Virus record (IMG/VR): IMGVR_UViG_3300029798_000001
Reading direction: 5' to 3' (one strand)
Origin: a virus
Lineage: Duplodnaviria; Caudoviricetes
Length of the DNA stretch: 64,000 nt
The notes under the pieces are model-generated. The model ran no database searches, was not told where the DNA came from, and was given only the letters and a program-made list of their open reading frames with translations. Below are positions 1-60,283 of this stretch, one piece after another (position 1 is the first letter of the stretch; every line of letters starts with the position of its first letter). Both the position numbers and the translations under genes were made by a program.

Positions 1-3000
1 TTAGATCACCAAGTTGATACTACTCCATTCGCCGGTGGTACTAAAAACAATCAATGGGGTCCAAAAAATATGCCAGGTGGCAGATTTACAGTACAAGATG
101 TTGACCCTTACGACATCGGAGTTCATGAAGCTGTTGAACCCGGTGAAGAAATCTCAACAAATGAATTACTATACCGTGCGGCTGTTGAGTATATGCAACA
201 CATGGGCCGCGAAGGTCAGCCAGTTGACTACGAAACAGCCGTTAAGTTGGCAGCCAAACATTACCATATTCCTTACCGCCCAGGTATGGTTCCAGAATTA
301 CATGCCAAGCGTCAAGAACTAGATGCTAAACTTGATGCGGCTATTAGAGCTCGTCAAGCCGAGCGTGGTGCCCGTAAACAACGACAACTGGCTCGCACAG
401 CGCCAACTACCCCAGAACAGGAAAAGAAAATGCAAGACTATTGGTCCAAGAATGCGCCACAGGCTACAAGAGTAAAAGCACCAACACGAAGTTTAGAAGA
501 AAATCAACAGTTACATGTCGGTGATCCTATTGTTGTTACAGCACCCAACGAGTTTGAAGGTAAGACTGGTGAGATCTACGACTTTGCGCCAAGTGGCAAG
601 TTTGTTATTGTCAACTTGTACAATCACGGCAAACACAGTATGCACCTAAGTGATGTTGAATACAATCAATATGCCAACGACCAAGATGAGAAAGAATTTT
701 GGAATGGTGATAAAGAAGTTAATGAAAGCAATATGAGTGAGTTAGATGCAATGCGTCAAGATCTTGAATTAATGAATGATCGCCAATTTAAAGTTGCCTA
801 TGGTATAAGCAAGGTAGCATTTAGGCAAAAGTATCGTGCATTATTGAATCCAGCACCTCAACAAGATGTTCCGGTAGAAGAAGGATGGCAAGACTTCAAC
901 AAGGTAGAGCCATATGCTGTTTGTTTAGCTGGCAAGCCTGTTAAGAAGTTTGACTACTATGAAGAAGCTCGCCGCTTCCACGATAACTGGAAGAAGAAGT
1001 TGTACCGCGAAGGCAACAAAGAAAAAGCAGATAAGATTACCTTGATGCCCATCATGGACGAAGGTGATGATCAGAATGGTCAACCTAGGGCTGGATTACC
1101 TGCAAATTTTGCAAACAGAATAATGGCATTAGATTTTCCACAAAGAAAAATATTTAGAGATTATATAAATTCATTTAACAAAATTCGCCAGGCATCGGCC
1201 GATCTTAATAAGATGTTGGCTGGATTTCCTAAAGATATTATTGACGCTTATCAACAGTTAACTCCTGAGCAACAACAGTCAGTGTCAATGGTGTTAGAAC
1301 CTGGTTGGGAAGAAGAAAACCAACTGGTACAAAAATATAAAAATGGAGTTGTAAAAAAACAAGGCGTGACAGAAGCTGGTAGCCCAGCACAACAGGCTGC
1401 CATCGCCATTGCTATGAAGCGGGCTGGTAAGAAACCTAAGCAAGCAGATGAGGGACAATTTAGCGTCACTGATGATCCATCTGCACATATTAAAGTATTA
1501 TTTCTTAAAACAATAAACGGAAATGAATATCGTTTGGTAAAACAAGGCGGTGTGTATAAGATTTATGTAAACAGAAGTAAGAAAACCAAACAAGAATTTC
1601 CATCTTTTGACCTTGCTAAAAAAGCATTACAACAATTATTATTAAATGCAGTGAATACAGATGAAGCGTATACACCAAGTCCAGCTAAACCGTTTCGCAA
1701 TCCTAGAGGCTTTAATAAACAAGGCACAGGTGTAGGCAATAAATTAGCACAACAAACTCGTGCTGAGTTAGCAAACATACAACCAAGGAAAGGTACACCG
1801 GTTCCAGCCAAAGAATTTGCTCAAGGTGTTTTGAAAGATTTAAAGAAGGTGAATGTAAAAGAAGCAGAAGGTAGTTGGATTGTGTATGATCCCGAAACCA
1901 AACAGATCAAGAAGCGTTTTAAAACACACACCGCAGGCAAGAGCTATGCTCAAACTCACGGCCTAGGATTTGCCAGTAGTGAATACTACTTTGACCGTGT
2001 TAAAGAACCGGTTAATGAACTTGATGTTAATACCTTAAAGAGTTATGCAGACAAGCGTGGAGCACAAGTGGCCGCAATGAAGGCCGACAATCCTAATCCT
2101 CAAACAGGCAGTAAAGAATGGGTTCAACAAGCTGTTCCGGCACAACAAGTAGGTCTTGCAAATCGTAAGATTGCTCGTAAAGAACGCCAGCAAGGTGTGG
2201 CGGAGGACTGGATTGATGACGATGCCGCAGAGCCATTGGCCAAATACTTTGCTGACTTATACTATGGCGATTTTAGTGCTACTATGAAAGTTAAACTAAC
2301 CTCACACATTTATCAAGCTATTCAAAACGGTGAGTTGAGTATTGAACAACTTAAAGCTGACATTGATATGTTGGAAAAAGAAAAAGGCATTAAAGAGCAA
2401 GGTGTGGCGGAAGGCAAGGGTCTGGCTAAGAAGGTAAAGATTGTTAAAGGTCCAGATGCAGGCAAGACAGGTTGGATTAGAGAAGTTAAACATGGTGCTT
2501 TCAAAGGTGCTCCAAAAACTTATTATATTGATTTAGATGATGGTGGTCAGGCAAATAACTTACCGGCCACAGCATTACGATTAGTTAAAGAACAAGGCAT
2601 GGCGGAAGGCTATACTCCGGATACAAACTATTCTTATACTATTGTAGGCAACGGTGACGAATCTAAAGCGTATGATAGTAAAGAAGAAGCGCGAGATGCC
2701 ATGCGTAAACTTGGCGCTGGTTATAAGATTAAACGCAAGCCACGCACAAGTGCTCGTAGTGTTAAAAAACATTTTAGTAATCGCAATATGGAACTTGGTG
2801 AAACACACGAACCACAGAAGTTTATTGTTACTATCAATGGTAAAGCCACTAGCCCACTATACCCAGATATGGCAGATAAATTATACATAGCGGCCAAGCG
2901 GGCACAACCTAATGCTCGTGTTGAAAAGACTGTGGCACAAACTACGGAGCGTCAAAAAGGTATTGATCGTGTTAAAGCTGGCTACGGTGATGAAGATGCA

Positions 3001-3393
3001 TTAGAATTACATGAACAACTGCCATCAACACCGCCGGCTAATCGCAAAGAGTATTTAGATCAACGCGATAAGTTATTCCGTATGTTGGCAGTTGACACCA
3101 ACCCAGTTAATAAGCAGATTATTAAACAGGCATTAAAAGATTTAGACAATCGATATGGTTCTATAAAAAATCCAGTAAATGAAGAAAATAGCACCAGCAG
3201 TGAAGCTGTTGAAATAGCCCTAATTCGTCGTGTATTAGTAGCACATACTGATTTAATCATGGATTTTGGTCTTGACAAGGTTACACAAGCCATCGAGGAA
3301 GTTGCTTACAATGTTGGTGATGTGGATGAAATCGGCACCAGTGATGTTAGTGGCTGGATCCATCAAGTCAAACAAATACTCGGTGTTGAATGA
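1..3393 (+). CDS. Large modular protein (>=1107 aa, probably 5'-partial); putative head-packaged polyprotein with KOW/SH3-like modules
   Basis: Frame is open from base 1 through the ATG at 70. Recurrent [VILM]-x-E junctions (GVTEA, GVAED, GVAEG, GMAEG, VNEE, LHEQ). Two KOW-like segments (VGDPIVVT..GKTGEI; KVKIVKGPDAGKTGWI). Confidence 0.6.
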   Translation, partial: LDHQVDTTPFAGGTKNNQWGPKNMPGGRFTVQDVDPYDIGVHEAVEPGEEISTNELLYRAAVEYMQHMGREGQPVDYETAVKLAAKHYHIPYRPGMVPELHAKRQELDAKLDAAIRARQAERGARKQRQLARTAPTTPEQEKKMQDYWSKNAPQATRVKAPTRSLEENQQLHVGDPIVVTAPNEFEGKTGEIYDFAPSGKFVIVNLYNHGKHSMHLSDVEYNQYANDQDEKEFWNGDKEVNESNMSELDAMRQDLELMNDRQFKVAYGISKVAFRQKYRALLNPAPQQDVPVEEGWQDFNKVEPYAVCLAGKPVKKFDYYEEARRFHDNWKKKLYREGNKEKADKITLMPIMDEGDDQNGQPRAGLPANFANRIMALDFPQRKIFRDYINSFNKIRQASADLNKMLAGFPKDIIDAYQQLTPEQQQSVSMVLEPGWEEENQLVQKYKNGVVKKQGVTEAGSPAQQAAIAIAMKRAGKKPKQADEGQFSVTDDPSAHIKVLFLKTINGNEYRLVKQGGVYKIYVNRSKKTKQEFPSFDLAKKALQQLLLNAVNTDEAYTPSPAKPFRNPRGFNKQGTGVGNKLAQQTRAELANIQPRKGTPVPAKEFAQGVLKDLKKVNVKEAEGSWIVYDPETKQIKKRFKTHTAGKSYAQTHGLGFASSEYYFDRVKEPVNELDVNTLKSYADKRGAQVAAMKADNPNPQTGSKEWVQQAVPAQQVGLANRKIARKERQQGVAEDWIDDDAAEPLAKYFADLYYGDFSATMKVKLTSHIYQAIQNGELSIEQLKADIDMLEKEKGIKEQGVAEGKGLAKKVKIVKGPDAGKTGWIREVKHGAFKGAPKTYYIDLDDGGQANNLPATALRLVKEQGMAEGYTPDTNYSYTIVGNGDESKAYDSKEEARDAMRKLGAGYKIKRKPRTSARSVKKHFSNRNMELGETHEPQKFIVTINGKATSPLYPDMADKLYIAAKRAQPNARVEKTVAQTTERQKGIDRVKAGYGDEDALELHEQLPSTPPANRKEYLDQRDKLFRMLAVDTNPVNKQIIKQALKDLDNRYGSIKNPVNEENSTSSEAVEIALIRRVLVAHTDLIMDFGLDKVTQAIEEVAYNVGDVDEIGTSDVSGWIHQVKQILGVE

Positions 3394-4031
3394 GATTTGG
3401 TGAATTTAAACGAGCCAGCCAAGAACACCTTGACGAAATTCTAGTTCGTTTATGTGCTATGGTGGTTGACGGTCAGAAGAAAGACCCTGACCATTATGGC
3501 ATGGTTGCTGCTGCGGTATTAGATCCTGATAATAATTGTGTTGCGGCTACTAGTTATAATGAAGATGGCAAGTGGGTGCATGCCGAGAGGGCGGCAATAG
3601 ATGCATATCATAGTCGTGGTGGCCGTATTCCAGCCGGCAGTATTATTATTACAACCTGTAGTCCATGTAGTGAAAAAATGGATGACCGCTACAGTGAAAG
3701 TTGCACAGACTTAATTAATGATACAGGTGTAGACTTAGTCTATGCTGGCTATGAAGATCCCACCCAACATGCAGAGCAGGCCAAGTTCAAGGTTGAAGTG
3801 TCCGACAATCCAAAGATACACGAACTATGCCATGTATTTGCATCAACCTTTATGGACAAAGAAGCGGCACAGTTAGATGAACTCAGCTTCTTAGGATCGC
3901 CATGCACCAAAGACTGTTCGGGTCATCGTGCTGGCTATGCCTGGAGCCAAAGCAAAGGTGGGCGTGTTGCCCAAAGTCCTTTTAGTCCTAGTTTCAATAA
4001 TGGTAGCCAACTTCAAGTGGATGGTAAGTAG
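3390..4031 (+). CDS. Zn-dependent cytidine/deoxycytidylate-type deaminase with an N-terminal capsid-targeting-like peptide
   Basis: HAERAAI and TTCSPC...C motifs; ATGA overlap with the upstream gene; N-terminus MRFGEF...LDE. Confidence 0.7.
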   Translation: MRFGEFKRASQEHLDEILVRLCAMVVDGQKKDPDHYGMVAAAVLDPDNNCVAATSYNEDGKWVHAERAAIDAYHSRGGRIPAGSIIITTCSPCSEKMDDRYSESCTDLINDTGVDLVYAGYEDPTQHAEQAKFKVEVSDNPKIHELCHVFASTFMDKEAAQLDELSFLGSPCTKDCSGHRAGYAWSQSKGGRVAQSPFSPSFNNGSQLQVDGK

Positions 4032-4605: not shown

Positions 4606-6756
4606 ATGAGTTTTGTAGATGCACTTTTTGATCGTGAACACGATCGTATCCATGTAGTTGAGCGCCGAGACGGTGAGCGGGTATACAAAGAATACCCTGC
4701 AAATTTTGTATTCTATTATGAAGACCCTCGTGGCAAGTTTCAAAGTATATTTGGCACACCGGTAAGTCGTTTTAGCTCACGTAACAATAAAGAATTCCGC
4801 AAAGAACTTAGGATACAATCAGGCAAGAAATTATTTGAATCTGATATCAATCCTGTATTTCGGTGCCTTGAAGAAAACTACAAAGGGCAAGACGGTCCAA
4901 AACTTAATGTAGCGTTCTTTGACATTGAGGTGGACTTTGATCCTGAGCGCGGATTTAGCCGCCCAGAGGATCCATTTAATGCTATCACTGCCATTTCAGT
5001 TTACCTACAGTGGTTAGAGCAAATGGTCACCTTGGTAATTCCACCTAAGCATATGAGCAAAGAAACAGCTCAAGAAATTGCCAACGAGTTTGAAAACACA
5101 ATCATATTCACTGAAGAAGGAGAACTGTTAAAAACATTCCTAGACTTAATCGAAGATGCAGATGCATTGTCGGGTTGGAACTCAGAAGGATTTGATATAC
5201 CGTACACTGTCAACCGTGTAACTCGTATACTAAGTAAAGATGATACCCGCAGGTTTTGCTTATGGAATCAATATCCCAAGAAGCGTACATTTGAACGCTT
5301 TGGTGCAGAAAACGAAACTTACGATTTGATTGGTCGTGTACATATGGATTATATGCAATTGTATCGAAAATATACATATGAAGAACGCCATAGTTACAGT
5401 TTAGATGCCATTGCTGAATATGAACTACAAGAAACTAAAACAGTGTTCGAAGGCACACTGGATCAATTATACAATCAAAACTTTAAAACATTTATTGAGT
5501 ATAATCGACAAGATACAATGATTCTTGCCAAGTTAGATAAGAAACTAAAATTTTTAGATCTAGCCAACACCTTGGCACATGAAAATACTGTGCTATTGCA
5601 AACTACTATGGGTGCCGTGGCTGTGACAGAACAGGCCATTATCAATGAGGCACACGAGCGTAGTATGGTTGTTCCTAATCGTAAGGAACGCTATTCGGAT
5701 GAAGATACACAAGCGGCCGGTGCCTATGTTGCTTATCCACGCAAGGGTATACATGAGTATGTAGGATCAATTGATATTAACTCACTATATCCAAGTGCTA
5801 TTCGTGCGCTTAATATGGGTCCAGAAACTATTGTGGGGCAACTCCGTCCTACAATGACCGATCGTTATATTGCCGATAAGATGCGTAGTGGAAGTAGTTT
5901 TGCCGCAGCGTGGGAAGGCCTGTTTGGATCATTAGAATATGAAGCTGTAATGGCCAGTGAGCGCGGCACAGAGATTACAGTAGATTGGCAAGGTGGTGAA
6001 GATTCTGTACACAGTGCGGCAGAAGTTTGGAAGATGATTTTTGATTCTAACCAACCATGGATGCTTAGTGCCAACGGTACAATCTTTACCTATGAAAAAG
6101 AAGCAATTATTCCGGGATTGTTAAAACGCTGGTACGCCGAGCGGAAAGAAATGCAGTCCAAACTTAAAGAATGTAAAAATGCAGAAGACGAAGAATATTG
6201 GGATAAACGACAACTCGTTAAAAAGATTAACCTTAACAGTCTCTATGGTGCTATCCTTAACCCTGGTTGCCGCTTTTTTGATAAGCGCATTGGACAATCT
6301 ACCACACTAACCGGTCGTGCTATCGCCAAGCACATGGACGCCTATGTAAATGAATGTATCACTGGCAAGTATGACCATGTAGGCGAATCAATTATTTACG
6401 GTGACAGTGTAACCGGCAATACTCTTATTAAGACTGATTCTGGAGAAATAGCTATTGAAGAATTATTTAGACAGACTCCTGAACATTGTATTATTGGTGA
6501 CAAGGAATATGCTACTGGAGCATTGGCCAAAGTTGTGGGATTTAATGCGTATGAAGATTCTCCTATAATGAGCAATATATCGTACGTAATGCGACACAAA
6601 ACAAAAAAGAAACTGTACAAAATTACGCTAGAAAATAATAAGTCAGTCACTGTAACCGAAGATCATAGTATAATGGTAGATCGTGACGGATTCCTAATGG
6701 AAGTAAAACCCAATGACATCTTGGGTAAAGATTTAATTATCAGTCTGAATACATAA
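4606..6756 (+). CDS. polB: Family B DNA polymerase, N-terminal part (3'-5' exonuclease + palm) fused to split intein IntN
   Basis: ExoI FDIEV, ExoII GWNSEGFD, ExoIII YNRQD; region II SIDINSLYPS; region III KKINLNSLYG; ends YGD then SVTG (intein). Confidence 0.95.
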   Translation: MSFVDALFDREHDRIHVVERRDGERVYKEYPANFVFYYEDPRGKFQSIFGTPVSRFSSRNNKEFRKELRIQSGKKLFESDINPVFRCLEENYKGQDGPKLNVAFFDIEVDFDPERGFSRPEDPFNAITAISVYLQWLEQMVTLVIPPKHMSKETAQEIANEFENTIIFTEEGELLKTFLDLIEDADALSGWNSEGFDIPYTVNRVTRILSKDDTRRFCLWNQYPKKRTFERFGAENETYDLIGRVHMDYMQLYRKYTYEERHSYSLDAIAEYELQETKTVFEGTLDQLYNQNFKTFIEYNRQDTMILAKLDKKLKFLDLANTLAHENTVLLQTTMGAVAVTEQAIINEAHERSMVVPNRKERYSDEDTQAAGAYVAYPRKGIHEYVGSIDINSLYPSAIRALNMGPETIVGQLRPTMTDRYIADKMRSGSSFAAAWEGLFGSLEYEAVMASERGTEITVDWQGGEDSVHSAAEVWKMIFDSNQPWMLSANGTIFTYEKEAIIPGLLKRWYAERKEMQSKLKECKNAEDEEYWDKRQLVKKINLNSLYGAILNPGCRFFDKRIGQSTTLTGRAIAKHMDAYVNECITGKYDHVGESIIYGDSVTGNTLIKTDSGEIAIEELFRQTPEHCIIGDKEYATGALAKVVGFNAYEDSPIMSNISYVMRHKTKKKLYKITLENNKSVTVTEDHSIMVDRDGFLMEVKPNDILGKDLIISLNT
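6406..6756 (+). mobile_element. Split intein, N-fragment (116 aa, Ser1)
   Basis: Block A SVTGNTLI directly after YGD; block B VTVTEDHS; ends at a TAA stop. Confidence 0.9.
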
Positions 6757-6760
6757 ATAC
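6751..6760 (+). promoter_or_regulatory. T4-like late promoter for the endonuclease, overlapping the IntN stop codon
   Basis: ACATAAATAC; the TAA at 6754-6756 is part of ATAAATA; AGGAG RBS follows. Confidence 0.55.
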
Positions 6761-6783
6761 TATGAAGATAGGAGTATCATCAT

Positions 6784-7743
6784 ATGCCAACATGTTTAGA
6801 GTGCGGGTATTCAGCCCCAAGATTACAGTGGACACACTTCAAATACAAATGTACCGGAAAATTCAAAAACGGTAATGAGTATATGTCCGCACACCCCGGT
6901 AGTGAGATAATAGATCCAGAATTAAAGAAAAAATACGGGTTTACACTTGACTCGGCTGTCAAAAAGTATGGTGCTGTGGAAGGTCAAAAACGATGGAATG
7001 AGTATTGTGATGCGCAGGCAACCACTAATACTTTTGAATACAAACATGAAAAATACGGTTGGACCCGTGAACAGTTTGACGAGTACAATTCATCAAGAGC
7101 AGTAACCATTGCAAACATGATCAAACGACATGGTGAAGAAATTGGAGTTGCTAAATGGCAAGAATATTGCGAACGACAAGGATATACCAATACCAAAGAA
7201 TATTTTATTGAAAAGTACGGTGCAATCATTGGCGTTAAAAAATATATTGAGGTTAACAAGAAAAAGAAAAACCCACACGACCCGGTGAGTATTTCTGAAA
7301 AATTAGGAATTACCTTGGACGAGGCGGTAGACATTATCTTGTCGAGAGAAAATTCTGGAAGAAGATATATTAGTAATCTTGAAGAAGAATTTACAAACAT
7401 GCTTGAAGATAAAGTAGGACCACTTGACTATACCTCAGCTAAACGACCATTTGGCAAATGGTCTCATTTATTGAATACCTATGTTGTATATGATATAAAA
7501 CACGGCAATTGCATTATTGAATTCAATGGTGATTACTGGCATGCTAATCCCAACATTTATGCTGGCACCGCTACAATAAGAGGTGTCCCGGCGGTTGATA
7601 TATGGCGCCAGAATGTGTTAAAATTACAAACAGCACAGGATTTGGAATTCAAAACCCTAGTGGTTTGGGAAACAGAATTTCGAAATGATAAAGTTGGAAC
7701 AATTAATAAGGTAGCAGAATGGATATTACAAGAACAACCGTAA
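6784..7743 (+). mobile_element. Free-standing Vsr-like (PD-(D/E)xK) homing endonuclease between the split polymerase halves
   Basis: C-terminal YDIK..IIEFNGDYWHANP...VVWE; N-terminal CxxC..H..C; internal repeats K[YH]G...G..[KR]W.EYC..Q..TNT.EY..EKYG. Confidence 0.8.
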
Positions 7744-8702
7744 AAAGTATTGATTGTCTCGGTGAGGTGGATGACTATGTGTATGATCTCAGTATAGAAG
7801 ATCAAGATCCTTATTTTTTTGCCAATGACATATTGGTGCATAATACCGACTCGTGTTATTTCACTGCATACCCTGTGTTGCAAAAAGAAATCGAAGCTGG
7901 TACAATGTCTTGGTCGAAAGAAATTGCGGTACAATTATATAACTCTATTGCCGACCAAGTTAATGATAGCTTTCCAGGATTTATGGAACAAGCATTTCAT
8001 GTACCTAGAGAAATGGGCGAAGTGATCAAAGGTGGGCGAGAGATTGTCGCAAGTAAAGGGCTGTTTATTACCAAGAAGCGGTATGCTGTATTGTATTATG
8101 ATAAAGAAAATAAGCGTGTAGATACCCACGGTAGTCCTGGTAAAGTAAAAGCCATGGGCCTTGATTTAAAAAGATCAGATACTCCCAAGGTTATTCAAGA
8201 ATTTTTAAGCGAGATTCTCGACGAGGTACTCACAGGCTCCACCAGAGATCAGGTTATTGAAAAGATCCGCGAATTTAAGTATATTTTTAAAGAGAGGCCG
8301 GGTTGGGAGAAGGGTAGTCCTAAGCGTGTAAACAACTTAACCAAATATGGTAAGGAAGAAGAAAGATTAGGCAAAGCCAATATGCCAGGACATGTCCGTG
8401 CTGCACTTAATTGGAATAATCTTCGCAGGATGAATGGCGACAAATATAGTTTACAGATTGTTGATGGCATGAAAACAATTGTATGTAAACTAAAATCTAA
8501 TCCACTTGGCTGGACTAGCATTGGTTACCCTACTGACGAAACACATTTGCCACAATGGTTTAAAGAGTTGCCGTTTGATGACACCGAAATGGAAGCCACT
8601 GTAGTTGATCAAAAGCTAGACAATTTATTAAGTGTATTAGAATGGGACTTGGCCAGTGCTACTAACACTAAAAATATTTTTCAAACATTGTTCGAGTGGT
8701 AA
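7719..8702 (+). CDS. polB: Split intein IntC (42 aa) fused to the DNA polymerase B C-terminal part
   Basis: YVYDLSIE (block F); ILVHN then TDSCYF (block G, Thr+1) restores YGDTDS; TKKRYA and KAMGLDLKRSD motifs. Confidence 0.93.
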   Translation: MDITRTTVKSIDCLGEVDDYVYDLSIEDQDPYFFANDILVHNTDSCYFTAYPVLQKEIEAGTMSWSKEIAVQLYNSIADQVNDSFPGFMEQAFHVPREMGEVIKGGREIVASKGLFITKKRYAVLYYDKENKRVDTHGSPGKVKAMGLDLKRSDTPKVIQEFLSEILDEVLTGSTRDQVIEKIREFKYIFKERPGWEKGSPKRVNNLTKYGKEEERLGKANMPGHVRAALNWNNLRRMNGDKYSLQIVDGMKTIVCKLKSNPLGWTSIGYPTDETHLPQWFKELPFDDTEMEATVVDQKLDNLLSVLEWDLASATNTKNIFQTLFEW

Positions 8703-12337: not shown

Positions 12338-13402
12338 TTGAACCGCAAAAACTTTTGTGCTGCTCCGTGGGCTGGACTTAGCTTAGATCCAGATGGTCAA
12401 GCTAAACTTTGTTGTATTAGTCAAGATCGAGTTCCATTGCAGGAGTTTGGTCATGCAAAATCTTTGTCTAAGTTTGTAGAAATTCGGCAGGCGTTTATTA
12501 ACGACCAACAACACACAAATTGTAGTGCTTGCTGGCAACGCGAAGAAGTTAATACTAATTGGGAAAGTCGTCGTAGCATTTATCAACATGATGATTTTCA
12601 TCATAATCTCAATTCGGCCACAGATTTTCAACTTGAACATTTAGATTTGCGCTGGAGCAATACTTGTAATCTTAATTGTGTGTATTGCAGTTCAACTTTC
12701 AGTAGTCGATGGGCTGAATTACAAGGAAAAAAACAAAGTTTTAAAATATCCCCCACAGTGACAGATTTGGATTTGGCCAATCTTAAAATATTACAACTGG
12801 CAGGTGGTGAGCCTTTGTTGATTAAAGAAAATCTAGGTATATTGGAACGTTTAAATAAAGTAAATCCTAATGTTAGTATCGAAGTCACAACCAATCTGAC
12901 CATGATCAACAATAATCGTATCTATGATAATTTAAAGCAGTTTGATAATGTGACTTGGATAGTCAGTTTTGAATCAACTGAGAAACGGTTTGAATACATT
13001 AGAAATGGTGCTAGGTGGGATGACTTTTATAATAATTTAAATAAGTTGGCCATGGATTTTATGGACATACAAGTAACTATGGTTTATTTTCCACTAAGTG
13101 GGTTAGGCATTACTAATGCAATACAAGTGGCGTTGGAATTTACTTCTCCGGATAATGTGTTTTTGGTCAGTCAATCTGGAGGACACGGATTTGACAATCT
13201 AAGTCGCTCTGCGTTACAATACATAAAACAACATAATTTAGACCAACTAATACAGTTACCCGATATTTTACAGACACGTTTACAAGATCAAATATTATCT
13301 GCTACAACGCAACAGACCGAAACACTATTACCGTTGTATGATAAATTTGATCAGCTTATTAACCAAAATCACCGTTTACTTTTCTCGGAGTTATATGAAT
13401 AG
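12338..13402 (+). CDS. Radical SAM protein with an N-terminal SPASM/twitch-type Cys cluster
   Basis: CNLNCVYC (CxxxCxxC) and GGEPLL; N-terminal CAAPW..CC..C..CW; TTG start. Confidence 0.85.
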   Translation: MNRKNFCAAPWAGLSLDPDGQAKLCCISQDRVPLQEFGHAKSLSKFVEIRQAFINDQQHTNCSACWQREEVNTNWESRRSIYQHDDFHHNLNSATDFQLEHLDLRWSNTCNLNCVYCSSTFSSRWAELQGKKQSFKISPTVTDLDLANLKILQLAGGEPLLIKENLGILERLNKVNPNVSIEVTTNLTMINNNRIYDNLKQFDNVTWIVSFESTEKRFEYIRNGARWDDFYNNLNKLAMDFMDIQVTMVYFPLSGLGITNAIQVALEFTSPDNVFLVSQSGGHGFDNLSRSALQYIKQHNLDQLIQLPDILQTRLQDQILSATTQQTETLLPLYDKFDQLINQNHRLLFSELYE

Positions 13403-25497: not shown

Positions 25498-26316
25498 ATG
25501 TCAAATGAATACAAAATAGCAGTTATACTACCTACACGGGGCCGCACTGCGGCATTAACACACAGTCTCGTCGGACTATTAGAAAAAGCCGCGGATCTGG
25601 ACCAGATACAGGTATTGTTAGGCTTGGACACGGACGATACAGTAGGCATTAAACATTTCCAAGAATCATTACAACCCCAGTTAGATGATATGGGCGTGGC
25701 CTATACCGCCATGACATTCGAACCCATGGGCTACAGTCGTCTTAACGAATACATCAATACCCTGAGTAAAGAGTCTAGTGCAGATTGGATCTTTTTTTGG
25801 AACGATGATGCCTTGATGGAGAGTGACAATTGGGATTTAGAAATTGTTAAACGCACCGGTGAATTTAAATTACTAGCAGTTCACACCCATAACGACCATC
25901 CTTATAGTATATTTCCAATCGTTCCAAGAGAATGGTTAGATGTCGTCGGCCATTTAAGTTTACACAGTATGACTGATGCTTGGCTAAGTCAAATTGCTTT
26001 CATGATAGATATTTGGGAACGTATCGATGTGCATGTTGTCCATGATCGGGCCGACCTTACTGGTAATAATTTAGATGCTACTTATAAACAAAGAGAACTA
26101 CTAGAAGGCAATCCTAGTAATCCTAGAGATTTTCATAATCCTAGCATGACTGTATTGCGTATGCAAGAATGTGAAAAATTATCAATTTATATGAAATCGA
26201 TAGGATTAGATACTACCTGGTGGAAAAATGTTAAACTTAGCAAACAAGACCCTTGGGAAAAATTAAACCTTAACGATCCAAATGGCCAAATGAGACAGTT
26301 TCAATTTAAACCCTGA
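25498..26316 (+). CDS. GT-A (family 2-like) glycosyltransferase
   Basis: VILPTRGR and FFWNDDA (DxD-like); TATAAATA promoter at 25483. Confidence 0.75.
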   Translation: MSNEYKIAVILPTRGRTAALTHSLVGLLEKAADLDQIQVLLGLDTDDTVGIKHFQESLQPQLDDMGVAYTAMTFEPMGYSRLNEYINTLSKESSADWIFFWNDDALMESDNWDLEIVKRTGEFKLLAVHTHNDHPYSIFPIVPREWLDVVGHLSLHSMTDAWLSQIAFMIDIWERIDVHVVHDRADLTGNNLDATYKQRELLEGNPSNPRDFHNPSMTVLRMQECEKLSIYMKSIGLDTTWWKNVKLSKQDPWEKLNLNDPNGQMRQFQFKP

Positions 26317-28331: not shown

Positions 28332-28759
28332 GATTACTAGCTAAAATTATATTGATTTTTTTATTTGGTCTAAATACATCCTGGGCCGACACCTGGATTA
28401 GCATTGGCGGTGGCACTTATCATACTTGTGAAACTTGTGGGTATAACGGTGTTAATCCGGGATTAGGAATACAAACCGACTATTCAAAAGACTTGCGTTT
28501 TGTGGCAGGTGGATATTATAATAGCTACTATAAAGCTAGTTTTTATGGTGGCGGTGCTTGGCAACCAATACAGTACGAAATAATTAAAGTTGGAATAGTT
28601 GGCGGTGTAATATCAAACTATAATAATCTACGGGTGCCACTAATGGCATTACCCGTTATTAGTATAGAAGGTGAGCTACTAGGTATTGACATTATGGGTA
28701 TTCCGACAATAACAAACCATTCTGGTATTATAACTGCAAATTTAAAATTTAAATTATGA
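28328..28759 (+). CDS. Secreted small outer-membrane beta-barrel protein (PagP-like)
   Basis: Signal peptide; NPGLG, G.Y.NSY...S.Y.G, alternating beta strands, terminal FKL. Confidence 0.45.
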   Translation: MRLLAKIILIFLFGLNTSWADTWISIGGGTYHTCETCGYNGVNPGLGIQTDYSKDLRFVAGGYYNSYYKASFYGGGAWQPIQYEIIKVGIVGGVISNYNNLRVPLMALPVISIEGELLGIDIMGIPTITNHSGIITANLKFKL

Positions 28760-29616
28760 AAATTAAAGTAAGCGAATTATTTTATAGTCTACAAGGCGAG
28801 GGTCGCTTTGTTGGAGTGCCTAGTGTATTCTTACGCACTTATGGTTGCAATTTTACCTGCTCCGGATTCGGTTGCAAGCCCGGCGAAAAATCTACAGGCG
28901 CAGACGATGTAGCTGAAGTGGTTCATATGTATAATAACTTCTTAGAGTTGCCACTGGTTGAAACCGGCTGTGATAGCTACGCATCTTGGCATCCAGCATT
29001 CAAGCATCTGAGCCCTACATACGAAACAGCAGATCTAGTAGAAAAGATGCTAGAACTAACTCCTAACAATATGTGGGCCCAGAATAATGGCAATGATGTA
29101 CATTTGGTAATTACAGGTGGTGAACCTTTGCTAGGGTGGCAACGTGCCTATGCAGAATTATTAAGTCATCCACGTATGGCAGATTTAAAGAATATTACAT
29201 TTGAAACAAATGGTACTCAAGAATTACACGCAGACTTTAAACTGTATTTGATTAAATGGGCTCAAGAGGTTCCGGGTCGCGAAGTTACATTTAGTGTTAG
29301 TGCCAAATTAAGTGCGTCGGGAGAAACTTGGGCGGATGCAATTAAGCCAGAGATTGTGAAGAGCTATCAATTATATGGACACACCTATCTTAAGTTTGTT
29401 GTTGAAACCGAAGAACATGTGGATGAAGCTGTTCGTGCTGTGGATGCGTTTCGCAAAGGTGGGTTTACTGGTGTAGTTTATTTGATGCCGCAAGGCGGTG
29501 TCGTTAAACCGTATGAAAGTAATAAACTAAACATTGCCAACATCTGCGTTGAGCGTGGGTGGAACTATAGTCCACGTCTACACGTTGACCTTTGGGGCAA
29601 CGGATGGGGCAAGTAA
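28756..29616 (+). CDS. queE: 7-carboxy-7-deazaguanine synthase (radical SAM)
   Basis: ELFYSLQGEG, FLRTYGCNFTC....CDS, VITGGEP, TFETNGT, SPRLH..LWG. Confidence 0.92.
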   Translation: MKIKVSELFYSLQGEGRFVGVPSVFLRTYGCNFTCSGFGCKPGEKSTGADDVAEVVHMYNNFLELPLVETGCDSYASWHPAFKHLSPTYETADLVEKMLELTPNNMWAQNNGNDVHLVITGGEPLLGWQRAYAELLSHPRMADLKNITFETNGTQELHADFKLYLIKWAQEVPGREVTFSVSAKLSASGETWADAIKPEIVKSYQLYGHTYLKFVVETEEHVDEAVRAVDAFRKGGFTGVVYLMPQGGVVKPYESNKLNIANICVERGWNYSPRLHVDLWGNGWGK

Positions 29617-30767: not shown

Positions 30768-32012
30768 ATGAAACGATGCAAGGTGGGGTTTGTAGGAATT
30801 GGAAAATTAGGGCTCGATTGTGCCGAAGTATTTGCTGAAAAACACGAAGTTCGCGGTTACGATATATATCCACGCACTAGTGACACTGTAACAGTATGTA
30901 GTATCGAGGAAGTAGTCAACGAAAGCGAATGGATTTTTATCGCTGTTCCTACTCCGCATGCTGAAGGCTACGATGGATCTGTTCCGTCAAGTCACATGAC
31001 TCCAAAAGACTTTGGGCATGATGCTGTTATTGATTCTATTAATAATATAAACAAGTATGCTACAACTCCTAAAAAAGTTGTATTGATTAGTACAGTATTA
31101 CCAGGCACTACTCGCAAGAAGTTTGTACCACTACTAGATCCCAAACATCAGTTTGTTTACAATCCGTATTTGATTGCCATGGGGTCGGTTAAGTGGGATA
31201 TGGTTAATCCTGAAATGATTATGTTGGGCACAGAGGATGGTAGTTTAACTGGGGTTGCTGGTGAACTCAAAGAACTGTATGAAACCATCATGCAAAATAA
31301 CCCACGCTACGAAGTTGGCACATGGGACGAGTGTGAAGCTATTAAGATTTTCTACAACACATTTATTAGTGCCAAGGTTGGCCTAGTTAATATGGTACAA
31401 GACTTTGCTATGAAGATTGGTAATATCAATGTTGATGTGGTTACAGATGCCTTGGCTAAAAGTACAATGCGTATCATGGGGCCCAAGTATATGACAGCGG
31501 GCATGGGTGATGCTGGCGCTTGTCATCCTCGTGATAACATTGCCCTGCGTTGGTTAGCTGAAGAATACGACATCGGCTATGACTTGTTTGACACAGTCAT
31601 GCATGCCAGAGAAATACAGGCAAGAAACTTAGCTGAATTTTTAGTTATACAAGCTACCAAATCCAATTTGCCTATTGTAATTCACGGTAAAGCCTATAAA
31701 CCAGATGTTGAATATTGTATTGGTAGTTACAGTACTCTTGTTGGGTTCTATGTTAAAGAATGTGGATTTGCTGTAAGTTATGTTGATCCGCTTGCTGACA
31801 ATCAAGATGAGGTAGTTGCCACAGTAGATACCCCGGCAGTATTTTTATGGGCACATAATCGTAAGATCACTTACGAGTATACTGGCGACCAATTAGATAC
31901 CCAACCATATTGTCCAATTTTGCCAGGATCGATTATTGTTGATCCATGGCGCAAATTACCCATTGACATGCCGGGTATTAATGTAGTACACTATGGTAAT
32001 ACACGACAATAG
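30768..32012 (+). CDS. ugd: UDP-glucose/GDP-mannose dehydrogenase
   Basis: GIGKLG, IAVPTP, STVLPG, NPY, K...N.F, GACHPRD. Confidence 0.88.
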   Translation: MKRCKVGFVGIGKLGLDCAEVFAEKHEVRGYDIYPRTSDTVTVCSIEEVVNESEWIFIAVPTPHAEGYDGSVPSSHMTPKDFGHDAVIDSINNINKYATTPKKVVLISTVLPGTTRKKFVPLLDPKHQFVYNPYLIAMGSVKWDMVNPEMIMLGTEDGSLTGVAGELKELYETIMQNNPRYEVGTWDECEAIKIFYNTFISAKVGLVNMVQDFAMKIGNINVDVVTDALAKSTMRIMGPKYMTAGMGDAGACHPRDNIALRWLAEEYDIGYDLFDTVMHAREIQARNLAEFLVIQATKSNLPIVIHGKAYKPDVEYCIGSYSTLVGFYVKECGFAVSYVDPLADNQDEVVATVDTPAVFLWAHNRKITYEYTGDQLDTQPYCPILPGSIIVDPWRKLPIDMPGINVVHYGNTRQ

Positions 32013-44692: not shown

Positions 44693-44894
44693 ATCCCTCC
44701 GTAAAGGATGTAGTAAGGAGCTCTCAGTTCCCTGTATGGTGAAGTAGTAGTTGATCCGAATCGCTCCTTGGTCGGAGTAGATGGTGATACTAAACGCTTC
44801 GTAAACTAAGAAAGTAAAGTCTAACCAACTGCACAATCTTAATACATATAAAGCTCTCCCGAATAACAGTGGTGAAAATCCACAAGGGATGCCA
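44693..44894 (+). ncRNA. Candidate ~200-nt RNA with tRNA-like termini
   Basis: ATCCCT/AGGGAT acceptor-like stem, GTGG-TGAAAAT-CCAC T-like arm, GCCA end. Confidence 0.5.
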
Positions 44895-44895
44895 C

Positions 44896-44974
44896 ACCCG
44901 GTTAGCTCAGTTGGTTTAGTAGCATTCGCTTGATAAGCGAAAGGTCCCTAGTTCGAGTCTAGGACCGGGTACCA
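44896..44974 (+). tRNA. tRNA-Ile(GAT)
   Basis: TT-GAT-AA loop, ACCA. Confidence 0.92.
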
Positions 44975-44981
44975 GTATTAT

Positions 44982-45055
44982 GAGTCTCAAGTGTTACGGT
45001 AGCACATCAGCCTCCAAAGCTGAGGGCCGGGGTTCGACTCCCTGGAGATTCGCCA
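44982..45055 (+). tRNA. tRNA-Trp(CCA)
   Basis: CT-CCA-AA loop, GCCA. Confidence 0.92.
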
Positions 45056-45061
45056 GTCAAT

Positions 45062-45110
45062 GGCGTGGGTAGCAAGGAAAGATAGGTTAAGCCCTAGACC
45101 TGCGTCGCCA
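45062..45110 (+). pseudogene. tRNA minihelix/remnant
   Basis: GGCGTGGGT/ACCTGCGTC stem, TAGG-TTAAGC-CCTA arm, GCCA. Confidence 0.45.
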
Positions 45111-45132
45111 AATTAACTTAAGAAAGAACCAA

Positions 45133-45606
45133 ATGAAGTTCAATATTCCACACATAACACAATTTATAGAAGCGCAAGGTCCAAACACTCGTATCTATAT
45201 TGGTGTGGATTCAGAACGTGTTCGCGGTCATGATAAGCAATGGCAAGCGATATACACTGCGGCTATTGTTGTACATATTAATGGTAACAACGGCTGTAAG
45301 TTATTTGGTGAGGTTACTCGTGAACGAGACTACGACCGAGTCGATAAGCCTAATACTCGCTTGATGACCGAAGTGTTCAAGGTAAGCGAACTGTATTTAA
45401 AACTTGCAGAAGTCTTAGAAGGTCGTGCTGTTGAGGTTCATCTTGATCTGAATCCAGACGAGCATCACGCTAGCTCTAATGTGGTGGCACAGGCTATTGG
45501 ATACATCCGCGGCACTTGTAATGTAGAGCCATTGGTTAAACCAAATGGATTTGCCGCAAGTTATGCTGCTGATAGAATGAGAGGTTTGCAGGTTGCTAAC
45601 GGGTAG
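45133..45606 (+). CDS. RNase H-like YkuK/DUF458-family protein
   Basis: IYIGVDS, RLMTEV, EVHLDLN, VKP..FAASYAAD. Confidence 0.75.
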   Translation: MKFNIPHITQFIEAQGPNTRIYIGVDSERVRGHDKQWQAIYTAAIVVHINGNNGCKLFGEVTRERDYDRVDKPNTRLMTEVFKVSELYLKLAEVLEGRAVEVHLDLNPDEHHASSNVVAQAIGYIRGTCNVEPLVKPNGFAASYAADRMRGLQVANG

Positions 45607-47992: not shown

Positions 47993-48069
47993 GGAAATGT
48001 AGCATAGTGGCTTAATGCAGTTGCTTCATACGCAACCTATCGTAGGTTCGAATCCTACCATTTCCACCA
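47993..48069 (+). tRNA. tRNA-Met(CAT), elongator type
   Basis: TT-CAT-AC loop. Confidence 0.85.
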
Positions 48070-48131
48070 GATTGACAAGTTTTACCAATTGTAGTATAAT
48101 GTATTATTAACCATAAAGAAAGGAGGCTAAT

Positions 48132-48701
48132 ATGCCATCAGTATGGTTATATTCAGATCCGCACTTTTCCCATCAAGGGGTGTGTAGGTTCCTGCGAGCA
48201 GATGGAGTGACCAAACTCCGTCCTTGGGACACCGCAGAAGAGATGGACGAAGAACTTGTTCGTAAATTTAACGAAACAGTTGGTCCTAACGACAAAGTGT
48301 ATATGCTGGGAGATATTGCGTTTAAGCGTAGTCATATCCGCATCTTAGAGCGTCTAAACTGTAAGGACCTGGTCCTTATCAAAGGTAATCACGATGTAGA
48401 AGACCTTAAACTCTACTCGCAATACTTCCGCGATATCCGTGCTTATCATATTATGGATAACTACTTGTTATCACATATTCCCATCCACCCAGAAAGTTTG
48501 AGTAGATGGAAAGGTAACTGGCACGGTCACACACACGCCAACAGCGTTATGCGGGATCTCGCCACTGCCGGTCGTCCCAATGTTGTCGATCCAAGGTATA
48601 TGTGCTTGTGCGTTGAGCAAACTGACTTCCGCCCAATCTTGTTTGAACGGGCACGAGATCGGTTTAATGAACAGATGGAACTAAGCCGGCAGCCTTTGTA
48701 G
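48132..48701 (+). CDS. Calcineurin-like metallophosphoesterase
   Basis: SDPHF.H, LGDI, GNHD, SH.P, HGH.H. Confidence 0.9.
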   Translation: MPSVWLYSDPHFSHQGVCRFLRADGVTKLRPWDTAEEMDEELVRKFNETVGPNDKVYMLGDIAFKRSHIRILERLNCKDLVLIKGNHDVEDLKLYSQYFRDIRAYHIMDNYLLSHIPIHPESLSRWKGNWHGHTHANSVMRDLATAGRPNVVDPRYMCLCVEQTDFRPILFERARDRFNEQMELSRQPL

Positions 48702-59339: not shown

Positions 59340-59621
59340 ATGAAAACCATCCGCGAATTGATCAATTTGATAGAAACGGCTCAACCTATGACCCACAACA
59401 ACCTTATCCTACAACTGGCTCAACAGGCTGGTATATTATTCGACACTGAGACTGTGCCCGAAACTGGGCTCAAATATGAAGGTGCAATGATTTCTCGTGA
59501 AGATTTGGAACAGTTTGCCCGGTTATTGATTAACGCCTGTGCTGAACAGGTCGATGACTATTGGAGCGAGCTAGACCATCGGTTTGCTGACAAGCGTATT
59601 AAACAACTGTTCGGACTATGA
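59340..59621 (+). CDS. Capsid-targeting-like peptide fused to a FARLL..C family domain
   Basis: MKTIRELINLIE; CTAAATA late promoter at 59328. Confidence 0.6.
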   Translation: MKTIRELINLIETAQPMTHNNLILQLAQQAGILFDTETVPETGLKYEGAMISREDLEQFARLLINACAEQVDDYWSELDHRFADKRIKQLFGL

Positions 59622-60283
59622 AAACCATCCGCGAATACATTGACCTGATAGAATCTGCTCAGACTCCGGTGACCGAAGGTGAAATCTCACAACAATACAC
59701 AGTAGCAGTTGATTGCGGCGAAGATGGCACTTTTACAGTAAAAGTTCACGCCGGCGACAAAGGAGAAGCACTACGCAAAGCTCAAAAAATTGTTCGTAAT
59801 GAATATGATACATATCCAGAGGGAGCAAGAATTGTCGGGCAAGGTGTAGCCGAAGATCTCATTGACCACGATGCCGCAGAGCCACTGGCTCGACACTTTG
59901 CTGAGTTGTATTACAACGGCCTTAGCTCAGCTGATGAAGCAAAAATGGCCGCTCGTGTCTATCAGCAAGTAGTTGATGGTGAAATGTCTATAGATCAACT
60001 TAAACAACATATTGCCAAGTTAGAAAAAGAAAAAGGTATTAAAGAGGCTACTAATGTCAATAACTTATTAAGTAAGGCCACTAAAGATGCAAACAAAGAT
60101 TTTAAAAAAGCCAAGGCTGATAAATTAAAAGCTGCTGGTGACTACTTCACAAAAGGAGAGCACTGGCAAGGTGCTAAGCCAGGTGATTATGGCTACACGG
60201 GCTATCAAGGCCACGGTATGCCAACCGACCGGGCGGAACGAGCTCGCATCCGTGCTGACAAGAAAAAACAACAAGACAAGTAA
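59618..60283 (+). CDS. Putative internal head polyprotein sharing a module with ORF 1-3393
   Basis: MKTIREYIDLIE..VTE; QGVAED...EKEKGIKE module. Confidence 0.7.
   Translation: MKTIREYIDLIESAQTPVTEGEISQQYTVAVDCGEDGTFTVKVHAGDKGEALRKAQKIVRNEYDTYPEGARIVGQGVAEDLIDHDAAEPLARHFAELYYNGLSSADEAKMAARVYQQVVDGEMSIDQLKQHIAKLEKEKGIKEATNVNNLLSKATKDANKDFKKAKADKLKAAGDYFTKGEHWQGAKPGDYGYTGYQGHGMPTDRAERARIRADKKKQQDK

Follow-up and report, generated by a model that had tools for sequence, protein, structure and literature searches.

A mosaic polyprotein of small modules with Glu-terminated joints: a candidate head-targeted cargo precursor in an uncultured jumbo phage

The 64,000-nucleotide stretch analysed here (hereafter the window; IMG/VR record IMGVR_UViG_3300029798_000001; Duplodnaviria, Caudoviricetes) is a gene-dense piece of a jumbo phage genome, with nearly all long open reading frames (ORFs) on the plus strand. 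Its first ORF, the subject of this report, is open at the 5' end and encodes a polyprotein of which 1130 aa (P0001) lie inside the window. The original prediction called it a giant ORF; it is long, and that description understated it, since the window truncates its 5' end. Judged from the relative P0002, ~640 aa of the polyprotein lie upstream of the window, and relatives are 1350-1730 aa long. Genes for ferritin, a dCMP deaminase and a family-B DNA polymerase (PolB) adjoin the polyprotein gene, and the window also encodes radical-SAM/QueE-type enzymes, an exonuclease and an ATPase. The closest matches to the window PolB came from the Pseudomonas phage PA5oct group, Phosso, SCTP-2 and Atu_ph07, with identities of no more than ~50% (aa). 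The source, a jumbo phage not yet in culture, belongs to the T4 superfamily; among cultured phages, the PA5oct group, Vibrio phage 2.275.O and Phosso come closest to it.

The polyprotein is a beads-on-a-string chain of ~16 small unrelated domains (Table 1). No module-to-module similarity was detected within it by self-BLAST, and the whole-protein AlphaFold2 model, computed from fragment alignments, showed high-confidence islands with low-confidence linkers between them (predicted template modelling score, pTM, 0.32), that is, separate domain islands and not one continuous domain. Together with the homology breaks at the junctions described below, these results bear out the originally proposed string of unrelated segments.

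Table 1. Features of the polyprotein gene and of its module pool in the window (↓, junction; HSP, high-scoring segment pair).
Feature	Position	Strand	Basis
Polyprotein gene, 3' part: 1130 codons and stop; 5' end off the window	1-3393	+	ORF list; 389 homologues of 620-1970 aa
Helical segment aa 1-167 (helices 53-151), ends SLEE↓N; variably present in relatives	1-501	+	HSP ends, AlphaFold
Most conserved module aa 168-242: KOW/Tudor-like five-stranded beta-barrel (170-225), acidic DDWYD-type tail, ends VNE↓S	502-726	+	Alignment A3, refold, Foldseek
Conserved three-helix module aa 243-294, ends VEE↓G	727-882	+	HSP ends; pLDDT 91-96
Conserved beta-beta-alpha-beta module aa 295-354, ends IMDE↓G	883-1062	+	HSP ends; pLDDT 96-98
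Three variable modules aa 355-555: helical 369-429, short basic 459-485, beta-sheet and helix 497-552	1063-1665	+	HSP ends, AlphaFold, P0002 comparison
Fourth, diverged joint of the QGVAE type: QGVTE (CAA GGC GTG ACA GAA)	1360-1374	+	Sequence
aa 556-735: basic, largely disordered segment (net +9), beta-beta-alpha-beta 622-673, helical 674-735	1666-2205	+	HSP ends, break peaks, AlphaFold, charge
Junction DNA repeat copy 1, encodes QGVAE	2189-2204	+	16-nt exact repeat
Acidic helical module aa 736-804, QGVAE on both sides	2206-2412	+	AlphaFold, charge, copy in ORF 59618-60283
Junction DNA repeat copy 2, encodes QGVAE	2396-2411	+	Identical to copy 1 over 16 nt
Basic KOW-like module aa 805-869, bounded by QGVAE↓G and QGMAE↓G	2413-2607	+	Weak Pfam KOW, phrog_26930
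Junction DNA repeat copy 3, encodes QGMAE	2591-2606	+	81% identical
aa 870-1061: DUF2188-like beta-beta-alpha-beta 876-914, module 937-983, helical 997-1055	2608-3183	+	Pfam, break peaks, AlphaFold
Acidic helical C-terminal module aa 1062-1130 (net -9), family hallmark	3184-3390	+	Alignment A1, profile search
Second, small member of the module pool (221 aa): leader MKTIREYIDLIE↓S, QGVAE↓D, copy of module 736-799	59618-60283	+	Sequence comparison

The module at aa 168-242 had 24 invariant columns across 63 sequences (alignment A3). Its barrel, from residues 158-245 refolded with this clean alignment, reached a predicted local distance difference test (pLDDT) score of ~88-90 and matched the KOW domains of Spt5, NusG and L24 in Foldseek (E ~1e-3). 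The mosaic alignment A2 had mis-modelled both KOW-like modules, and it was the A3 refold that showed the first one folded. No Pfam family was found above cut-off in P0001; weak matches were obtained for KOW (aa 811-829) and DUF2188 (aa 875-904), and one PHROG of no known function (phrog_26930) matched aa 785-846. A Foldseek search with the model of all 1130 aa returned nothing at E<=0.001 (rows for AcrF1 and MmoD were weak and not trusted), and an ESM Atlas feature search of the polyprotein returned no usable match. In some relatives, borderline Pfam matches to RMF, LysM and PGDYG were observed, the RMF match (25.6-27.9 bits against a cut-off of 27.9) being a hint only. The KOW-like folds and the borderline RMF-like modules of relatives are likewise no more than hints as to function. 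The 698-position phrog_26930 profile also matched two genes of G002, an IMG/VR contig with a family member (44840-45502 and 204734-207220), through different parts of the profile, and this PHROG is therefore itself a mosaic of polyprotein modules.

Homologues were searched among 5.8 billion proteins, with metagenomic matches; contigs of the family, for example those of the ENA assemblies behind the relatives L001 and L003, come from freshwater samples. The 389 large homologues had high bit scores, and their best local alignments covered 5-50% of the query at 60-95% identity; such high scores over partial local alignments indicate that the homologues are mosaic. The three modules at aa 165-355 and the C-terminal module were present in nearly all members, while the middle modules come and go. 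The C-terminal module was always preceded by a hydrophobic-x-E site (alignment A1). A search of 1.84 billion cluster representatives with its profile gave 1138 matches at E<=1e-3, of which 950 reached <=1e-10, and most of them lay at a C-terminus or close to one. Comparison of module order among relatives, as the original prediction had proposed, showed that the order is not fixed: in P0003, a copy of aa 799-870 comes before a copy of aa 581-740. Relative to P0002, P0001 has ~190 extra residues lying precisely between ...MDE↓ and ...TDE↓A, where P0002 has ...MKEQGVAE↓A; the modules of aa 355-555 are all missing from P0002, the deletion falling precisely between two xxE sites. The basic KOW-like module has 96-97% identical copies in P0231 and P0003, and polyprotein modules were also found in smaller mosaic proteins. 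No description of such polyproteins was found in literature searches.

All the junction motifs listed in the original prediction were present in P0001, namely SLEE (aa 164), VNE (240, 671 and 1059), VEEG (292), MDEG (352), GVTEA (455), VKEA (619), GVAED (732), IKEQGVAEG (797), VKEQGMAEG (862), LHEQ (1003) and VNEE (1059). Additional joints were QGVTE↓A, QADE↓G and NTDE↓A inside aa 355-555, VKE↓A, VNE↓L and QGVAE↓D in aa 556-735, and LGE↓T, LHE↓Q and VNE↓E in aa 870-1061. The number of [VILM]xE motifs in the protein was mildly raised (24 versus 16.5±3.5), and the junction signal is where these sites sit, not their number. The 383 HSP ends obtained against 120 homologues clustered at aa 164-167, 240, 292, 352, ~485, 619, 671, 732, 1003 and 1059, and 10 of the 14 break peaks were at most 8 aa from a [VILM]xE site, compared to 31% at random (P = 0.002). 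Low-confidence linkers of the model held 9 of the 11 originally listed junctions and 14-15 of all 24 [VILM]xE sites (p = 0.001-0.01).

The same pattern was observed family-wide. An all-against-all comparison of 121 members yielded 106 non-redundant break-point contexts, and [VILM]xE was found in 81% of them versus 29% of windows drawn at random from these proteins, whereas the controls [VILM]xD, xK and xQ were unenriched (24-26% versus 27-37%). Among the Glu-anchored joints (n = 89), P3 was V in 47, L in 22, M in 10 and I in 10, and P1' was mostly G, D, E, N or A; only two break points had A or T at P3 (QADE↓G and NTDE↓A). QGVAE was the most frequent 5-mer, and QG[VIML][ATSV]E occurred 143 times in the 121 proteins in 130 different contexts, with 1.9 occurrences expected after shuffling. 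The extended joint consensus was (K/R)(E/K/Q)-Q-G-V-A-E-(G/A/D). The other junction types of the original list represent the general rule of the family, and QGVAE is one over-represented special case of it.

At the DNA level, the reused motif noted earlier was recovered exactly at 2191, 2398 and 2593, within the three repeat copies of Table 1; the chance expectation for such an exact 16-nt repeat is estimated at ~0.001 in 3.4 kb. The survey of joint codons took in 30 QGxxE sites, spread over 14 genes of the window and of retrieved loci; some of these sites are orthologous and hence not independent. Among the joint Val codons (n = 26), GTG was used 16 times (background 13%), GTA 9 times, GTC once and GTT never (background 45%); Ala was GCG in 16 of 25 cases (background 7%) and Gln was CAA in 29 of 30. 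As the joint codons are far from the usage of the genes themselves and the flanks are unrelated, the joints either share descent or have been kept alike at the DNA level, and the variants resemble products of G-to-A decay from a single ancestral CAAGGTGTGGCGGAA. Of the earlier proposal that the QGVAE DNA doubles as a shuffling junction, the conservation of codons beyond the amino-acid level was upheld; recombination at the joint is something we infer, and the conservation fits copy-and-paste cassette exchange via the joint without being proof of it.

The excess of GTG at the joints, together with Met (ATG) as the second commonest residue at that position, could also be taken to mean that the QG(V/M)AE joints are internal translation starts giving nested C-terminal products. 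This explanation is extremely improbable and was rejected on codon counts, as the GTA and GTC codons and the Ile residues that also occur at this position cannot start translation; moreover, no properly spaced Shine-Dalgarno sequence was evident at the joints, and most other junction types lack any start codon.

The N-termini of the family provided a further set of Glu-terminated sites. Among the 121 relatives, 82 begin MFALDLFN-x6-[LI]-x-E↓GA(V/I)D, and more distant members carry shorter leaders (MNLFDIFE↓G, MFLDDIVGPMSMKE↓A, MFVFNLFE↓N) before the same mature N-terminus. Module-sharing sister proteins also carry leaders ending in hydrophobic-x-E (MKTFRDYINLIE↓N, MKASEFITE↓G and MKTIREYIDLIE↓S), the last of these in the small window ORF at 59618-60283, whose copy of module 736-799 is 59% identical and directly follows QGVAE↓D. 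T4 IPII and IPIII begin MKTYQEFIAE↓A, and MKTIREYIDLIE resembles this capsid-targeting sequence (CTS). Within the window, this ORF was the sole match to a T4-like leader pattern, and no match was found in G002, PA5oct or G001, a second IMG/VR contig with a family member (~815 kb in all). No leader-like N-termini were found in PA5oct, and its published virion proteome therefore gives no support.

The prohead protease gp21 of T4 cuts after Glu at L/I-X-E (PMC9026906), as the original prediction had stated. In the T4 internal proteins, propeptides of 10-19 residues serve as CTSs, and the CTS may be a general route by which T4-like phages load diverse proteins (PMC9026906). Replacing the P1 Glu of the T4 CTS by Asp blocks its processing (PMC9026906). 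A gene for a protease of this type (Peptidase_S77, PF03420) was found above the Pfam cut-off in both G001 (86.9 bits) and G002 (111.1 bits). The 228-kb contig G001 and the window phage are closely related: PolB is 90% and an ATPase 94% identical between them, and they share the gene order of polyprotein, dCMP deaminase, PolB and ORF240. The S77 protease gene of G001 (48039-48695, minus strand) lies between the portal and scaffold/major capsid protein (MCP) genes. Its MCP, which shares 64-65% identity with the MCPs of Vibrio phage 2.275.O, Phosso and PA5oct, begins MSQELLE↓GRWSETKDALLE↓G, with LLE↓G twice at the N-terminus.

Our preferred reading, held with moderate confidence, is that the polyprotein is a head-targeted, protease-jointed precursor that would be cut into small internal or ejected proteins. 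In the proposed mechanism, the short leader (present in full-length relatives) would dock the precursor in the prohead scaffolding core in the manner of a T4 CTS, and would then be removed by the gp21-type protease. The same protease would cut after Glu at exposed [V/L/I/M]-x-E joints between the ~16 modules, QGVAE↓G being the commonest joint. The resulting pieces of 3-12 kDa, some basic and some acidic, would stay with the DNA and exit the head with it at infection. Once ejected, they could act separately on host targets, the KOW-like modules and the RMF-like modules of relatives hinting at the transcription and translation machinery. Finally, the joint DNA CAAGGTGTGGCGGAA could serve as a short stretch of identity for cassette exchange between paralogues and between phages, giving rise to the mosaic family.

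The joints could instead be flexible hinges or recombination scars in an uncleaved multidomain protein of the "polyvalent" type, with its modules remaining tethered. Multi-effector single polypeptides are common in phages (PMC5512222), and a few genes upstream of the polyprotein at the locus of one relative (L001:1353-5648) lies a 1431-aa protein of classical polyvalent-type architecture, joining a nucleotidyltransferase (NTP_transf_2), sigma-70 region 4 and amidoligase (amidoligase_2) domains. The nucleotide-level conservation of the QGVAE DNA could reflect a recombination joint only, cleavage there being a prediction. Nevertheless, we regard this explanation as fairly unlikely: hinges or scars would leave unexplained the Glu at P1 and the hydrophobic P3 when D, K and Q are unenriched, as well as the leaders ending in the same motif and the T4-CTS-like leader of the module-sharing ORF. 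In addition, no polyvalent signature domain or embedded peptidase was found by Pfam.

Several modules are acidic (net -8 to -9), including the invariant acidic helical C-terminal module, which raises the question of a structural role. The polyprotein might be packaged and cut as an auxiliary, scaffold-like filler of the prohead core, its fragments mostly leaving before DNA packaging, like those of T4 gp22, gp67 and gp68, instead of being injected. In T4, the core proteins are indeed cleaved into several fragments, which then leave the head (PMC9026906), and the conserved neighbour directly upstream of the polyprotein in relatives is acidic as well and rich in [VILM]xE. A filler is unlikely. 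The mosaicism is extreme and the middle modules turn over fast, which suits proteins engaged in conflict or carried as cargo better than structural ones; the small KOW-like or RMF-like folded domains are not scaffold-like; and the C-terminal module profile had no match to the scaffold, core or other head genes of G001 and G002. This last result also led to rejection of the idea that the C-terminal module is a copied scaffold tail. The upstream neighbour (L001:9340-9990; at a second relative's locus, L003:9215-9985) is a protein of 216-256 aa with no known family that begins MAQDHNDIYSIVE↓RLAILE↓G. An additional component of the head core or of the cargo is one possibility for this neighbour, a partner of the polyprotein another.

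The genomic setting bears on whether there is a capsid link at all. With ferritin, dCMP deaminase and PolB as neighbours and no late-promoter consensus upstream, the product could be a cytoplasmic early or middle polyprotein processed by a host or other phage protease, or one unconnected with the capsid. We consider this very unlikely. No other protease candidate was found by Pfam in P0001 or in seven full-length relatives, the joint motif agrees with that of the only well-known class of Glu-specific phage proteases, a member of which is encoded by a close relative, and T4 internal-protein genes likewise lie among non-structural genes.

Several observations weigh against the head-cargo reading. 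The family was not found in cultured phages: the whole protein and three parts, compared with 50,697 cultured-phage records (megablast, tblastn), gave nothing usable (a single match, E = 0.6), and neither the C-terminal module profile nor phrog_26930 matched in PA5oct, Vibrio phage 2.275.O or Phosso. At the joints, 7-10 of the 24 [VILM]xE sites lie inside folded modules, some break points carry xDE↓G/A alone without a hydrophobic P3, and P3 is mostly Val (47/89), unlike the Leu/Ile preference of T4. QGVAE was found in no G001 head protein, occurring in that contig only in the polyprotein and one neighbouring ORF, and nowhere in G002, whose family member uses other joints; because of this restriction, QGVAE must be more than a minimal protease site. 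The 64-kb window itself contains neither the polyprotein leader nor a protease gene nor head genes. The polyprotein gene also lies within a block of replication and nucleotide-metabolism genes, which is no strong objection because T4 ipII and ipIII are themselves among non-structural genes (denV, e, nudE). Similarly, the T4-type late promoter TATAAATA was not found upstream of the gene in L001, L003 or G001, a null result that is uninformative as the consensus is that of T4 and may not be that of the clade of the polyprotein phages.

A more tentative extension of the head-cargo reading, possible without being the likelier case, is combinatorial cargo diversification. One 15-16-nt element would have two jobs, as an optimal cut site ((K/E)QGVAE↓G) and as microhomology for module swaps among paralogous genes and co-infecting jumbo phages. 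If so, a phage population would keep re-dealing at least hundreds of injected mini-proteins between one leader and one C-terminal module; the nucleotide-level conservation of the joints makes this a concrete, testable case of motif-guided cassette shuffling. Should the head-cargo reading itself hold, the T4 scheme, in which one tag and one protease serve one cargo, would be widened in uncultured aquatic jumbo phages, with a dozen or more small, fast-reshuffled proteins delivered per precursor. The at least 1138 clusters (50% identity) would then form a pool of candidate injected mini-proteins for host takeover or anti-defence, the leader combined with [VLIM]xE joints would provide a sequence rule for spotting virion cargo in metagenomes, and the precursor would be a natural design for placing several payloads in T4-type capsids.

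Other features of the window concern its polymerase and metabolic genes. The window PolB is in pieces (4606-8702): ORF 4606-6756 encodes the exonuclease and the N part of the polymerase, with the N half of an intein splicing domain at its end, ORF 6784-7743 follows after a stop in the same frame (phrog_22677, no assigned function), and ORF 7719-8702, in another frame, encodes the intein C end and the C part of the polymerase. PolB is intact in L001 (885 aa) and split by a minus-strand ORF in L003. The fragmented gene could contain a split intein, or else an intein whose endonuclease has decayed or is free-standing. The window further encodes two radical-SAM enzymes, one of them QueE-like, a glycosyltransferase and a UDP-glucose dehydrogenase (12338-13402, 28756-29616, 25498-26316 and 30768-32012); these, together with the dCMP deaminase (3390-4031), suggest DNA-base or sugar modification pathways.

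Compared with known systems, the polyprotein shares several traits with the polyvalent proteins of phages and conjugative elements (Iyer, Burroughs, Anand, de Souza and Aravind 2017; PMC5512222), which likewise have many unrelated domains per polypeptide in varying combinations and for which co-delivery with DNA and proteolytic release have been proposed. Polyvalent proteins are phage- or plasmid-encoded, with 2-15 unrelated domains and a variable architecture, and the phage polyprotein, with its ~16 modules and mosaic relatives, resembles them in this respect. Their domains are large and enzymatic, usually with an embedded zincin-like (MPTase) peptidase and LPD domains, whereas the polyprotein has modules of 30-100 aa without known enzyme domains, and its putative release sites match an external prohead protease. 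Neither LPD families, MuF, ArdC-N, enzymatic effector domains nor MPTase were detected by Pfam in P0001 and the seven full-length relatives.

The inner-body and ejection proteins of phiKZ, 201phi2-1 and SPN3US also belong to giant phages; a protease related to gp21 processes them at multiple sites per protein, each cut falling behind the Glu of a three-residue motif. Their motif is S/A-X-E and serves mainly in propeptide removal from large proteins, whereas P3 at the polyprotein junctions is V, L, M or I; no sequence kinship or shared joint consensus with the polyprotein was observed, nor any match in the phage collection. A parallel for the shuffling is the His-box-mediated domain swapping in T-even tail-fibre adhesins, reportedly described by Tetart, Desplats and Krisch in 1998, in which short conserved motifs are said to flank variable segments and to be recombination points that shuffle modules between phages. 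That system concerns the receptor-binding segments of tail fibres and not head cargo, and its motif is not known to have a proteolytic role.

The closest parallel is with the T4 internal proteins IPI, IPII, IPIII and Alt. Common traits are the short N-terminal leader ending in hydrophobic-x-Glu (MKTYQEFIAE in T4; here a putative leader, seen in full-length relatives and, as MKTIREYIDLIE, in the module-sharing window ORF), the gp21-type S77 protease (here in a close relative), the highly diverse mature parts and the location of the genes outside the head-gene cluster. The polyprotein has no homology to any T4 internal protein, no Pfam or PHROG match of known function and no tblastn match among the phage records; its packaging and cleavage are predicted by analogy. 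The extended joint and the conserved C-terminal module have no T4 counterpart, and Val predominates at P3. Whereas each T4 leader serves a single cargo, the leader here precedes ~16-25 unrelated modules, with an additional site between successive ones. By this comparison, the polyprotein may well work along the T4 CTS/gp21 cargo route, with many cargos carried by each precursor.

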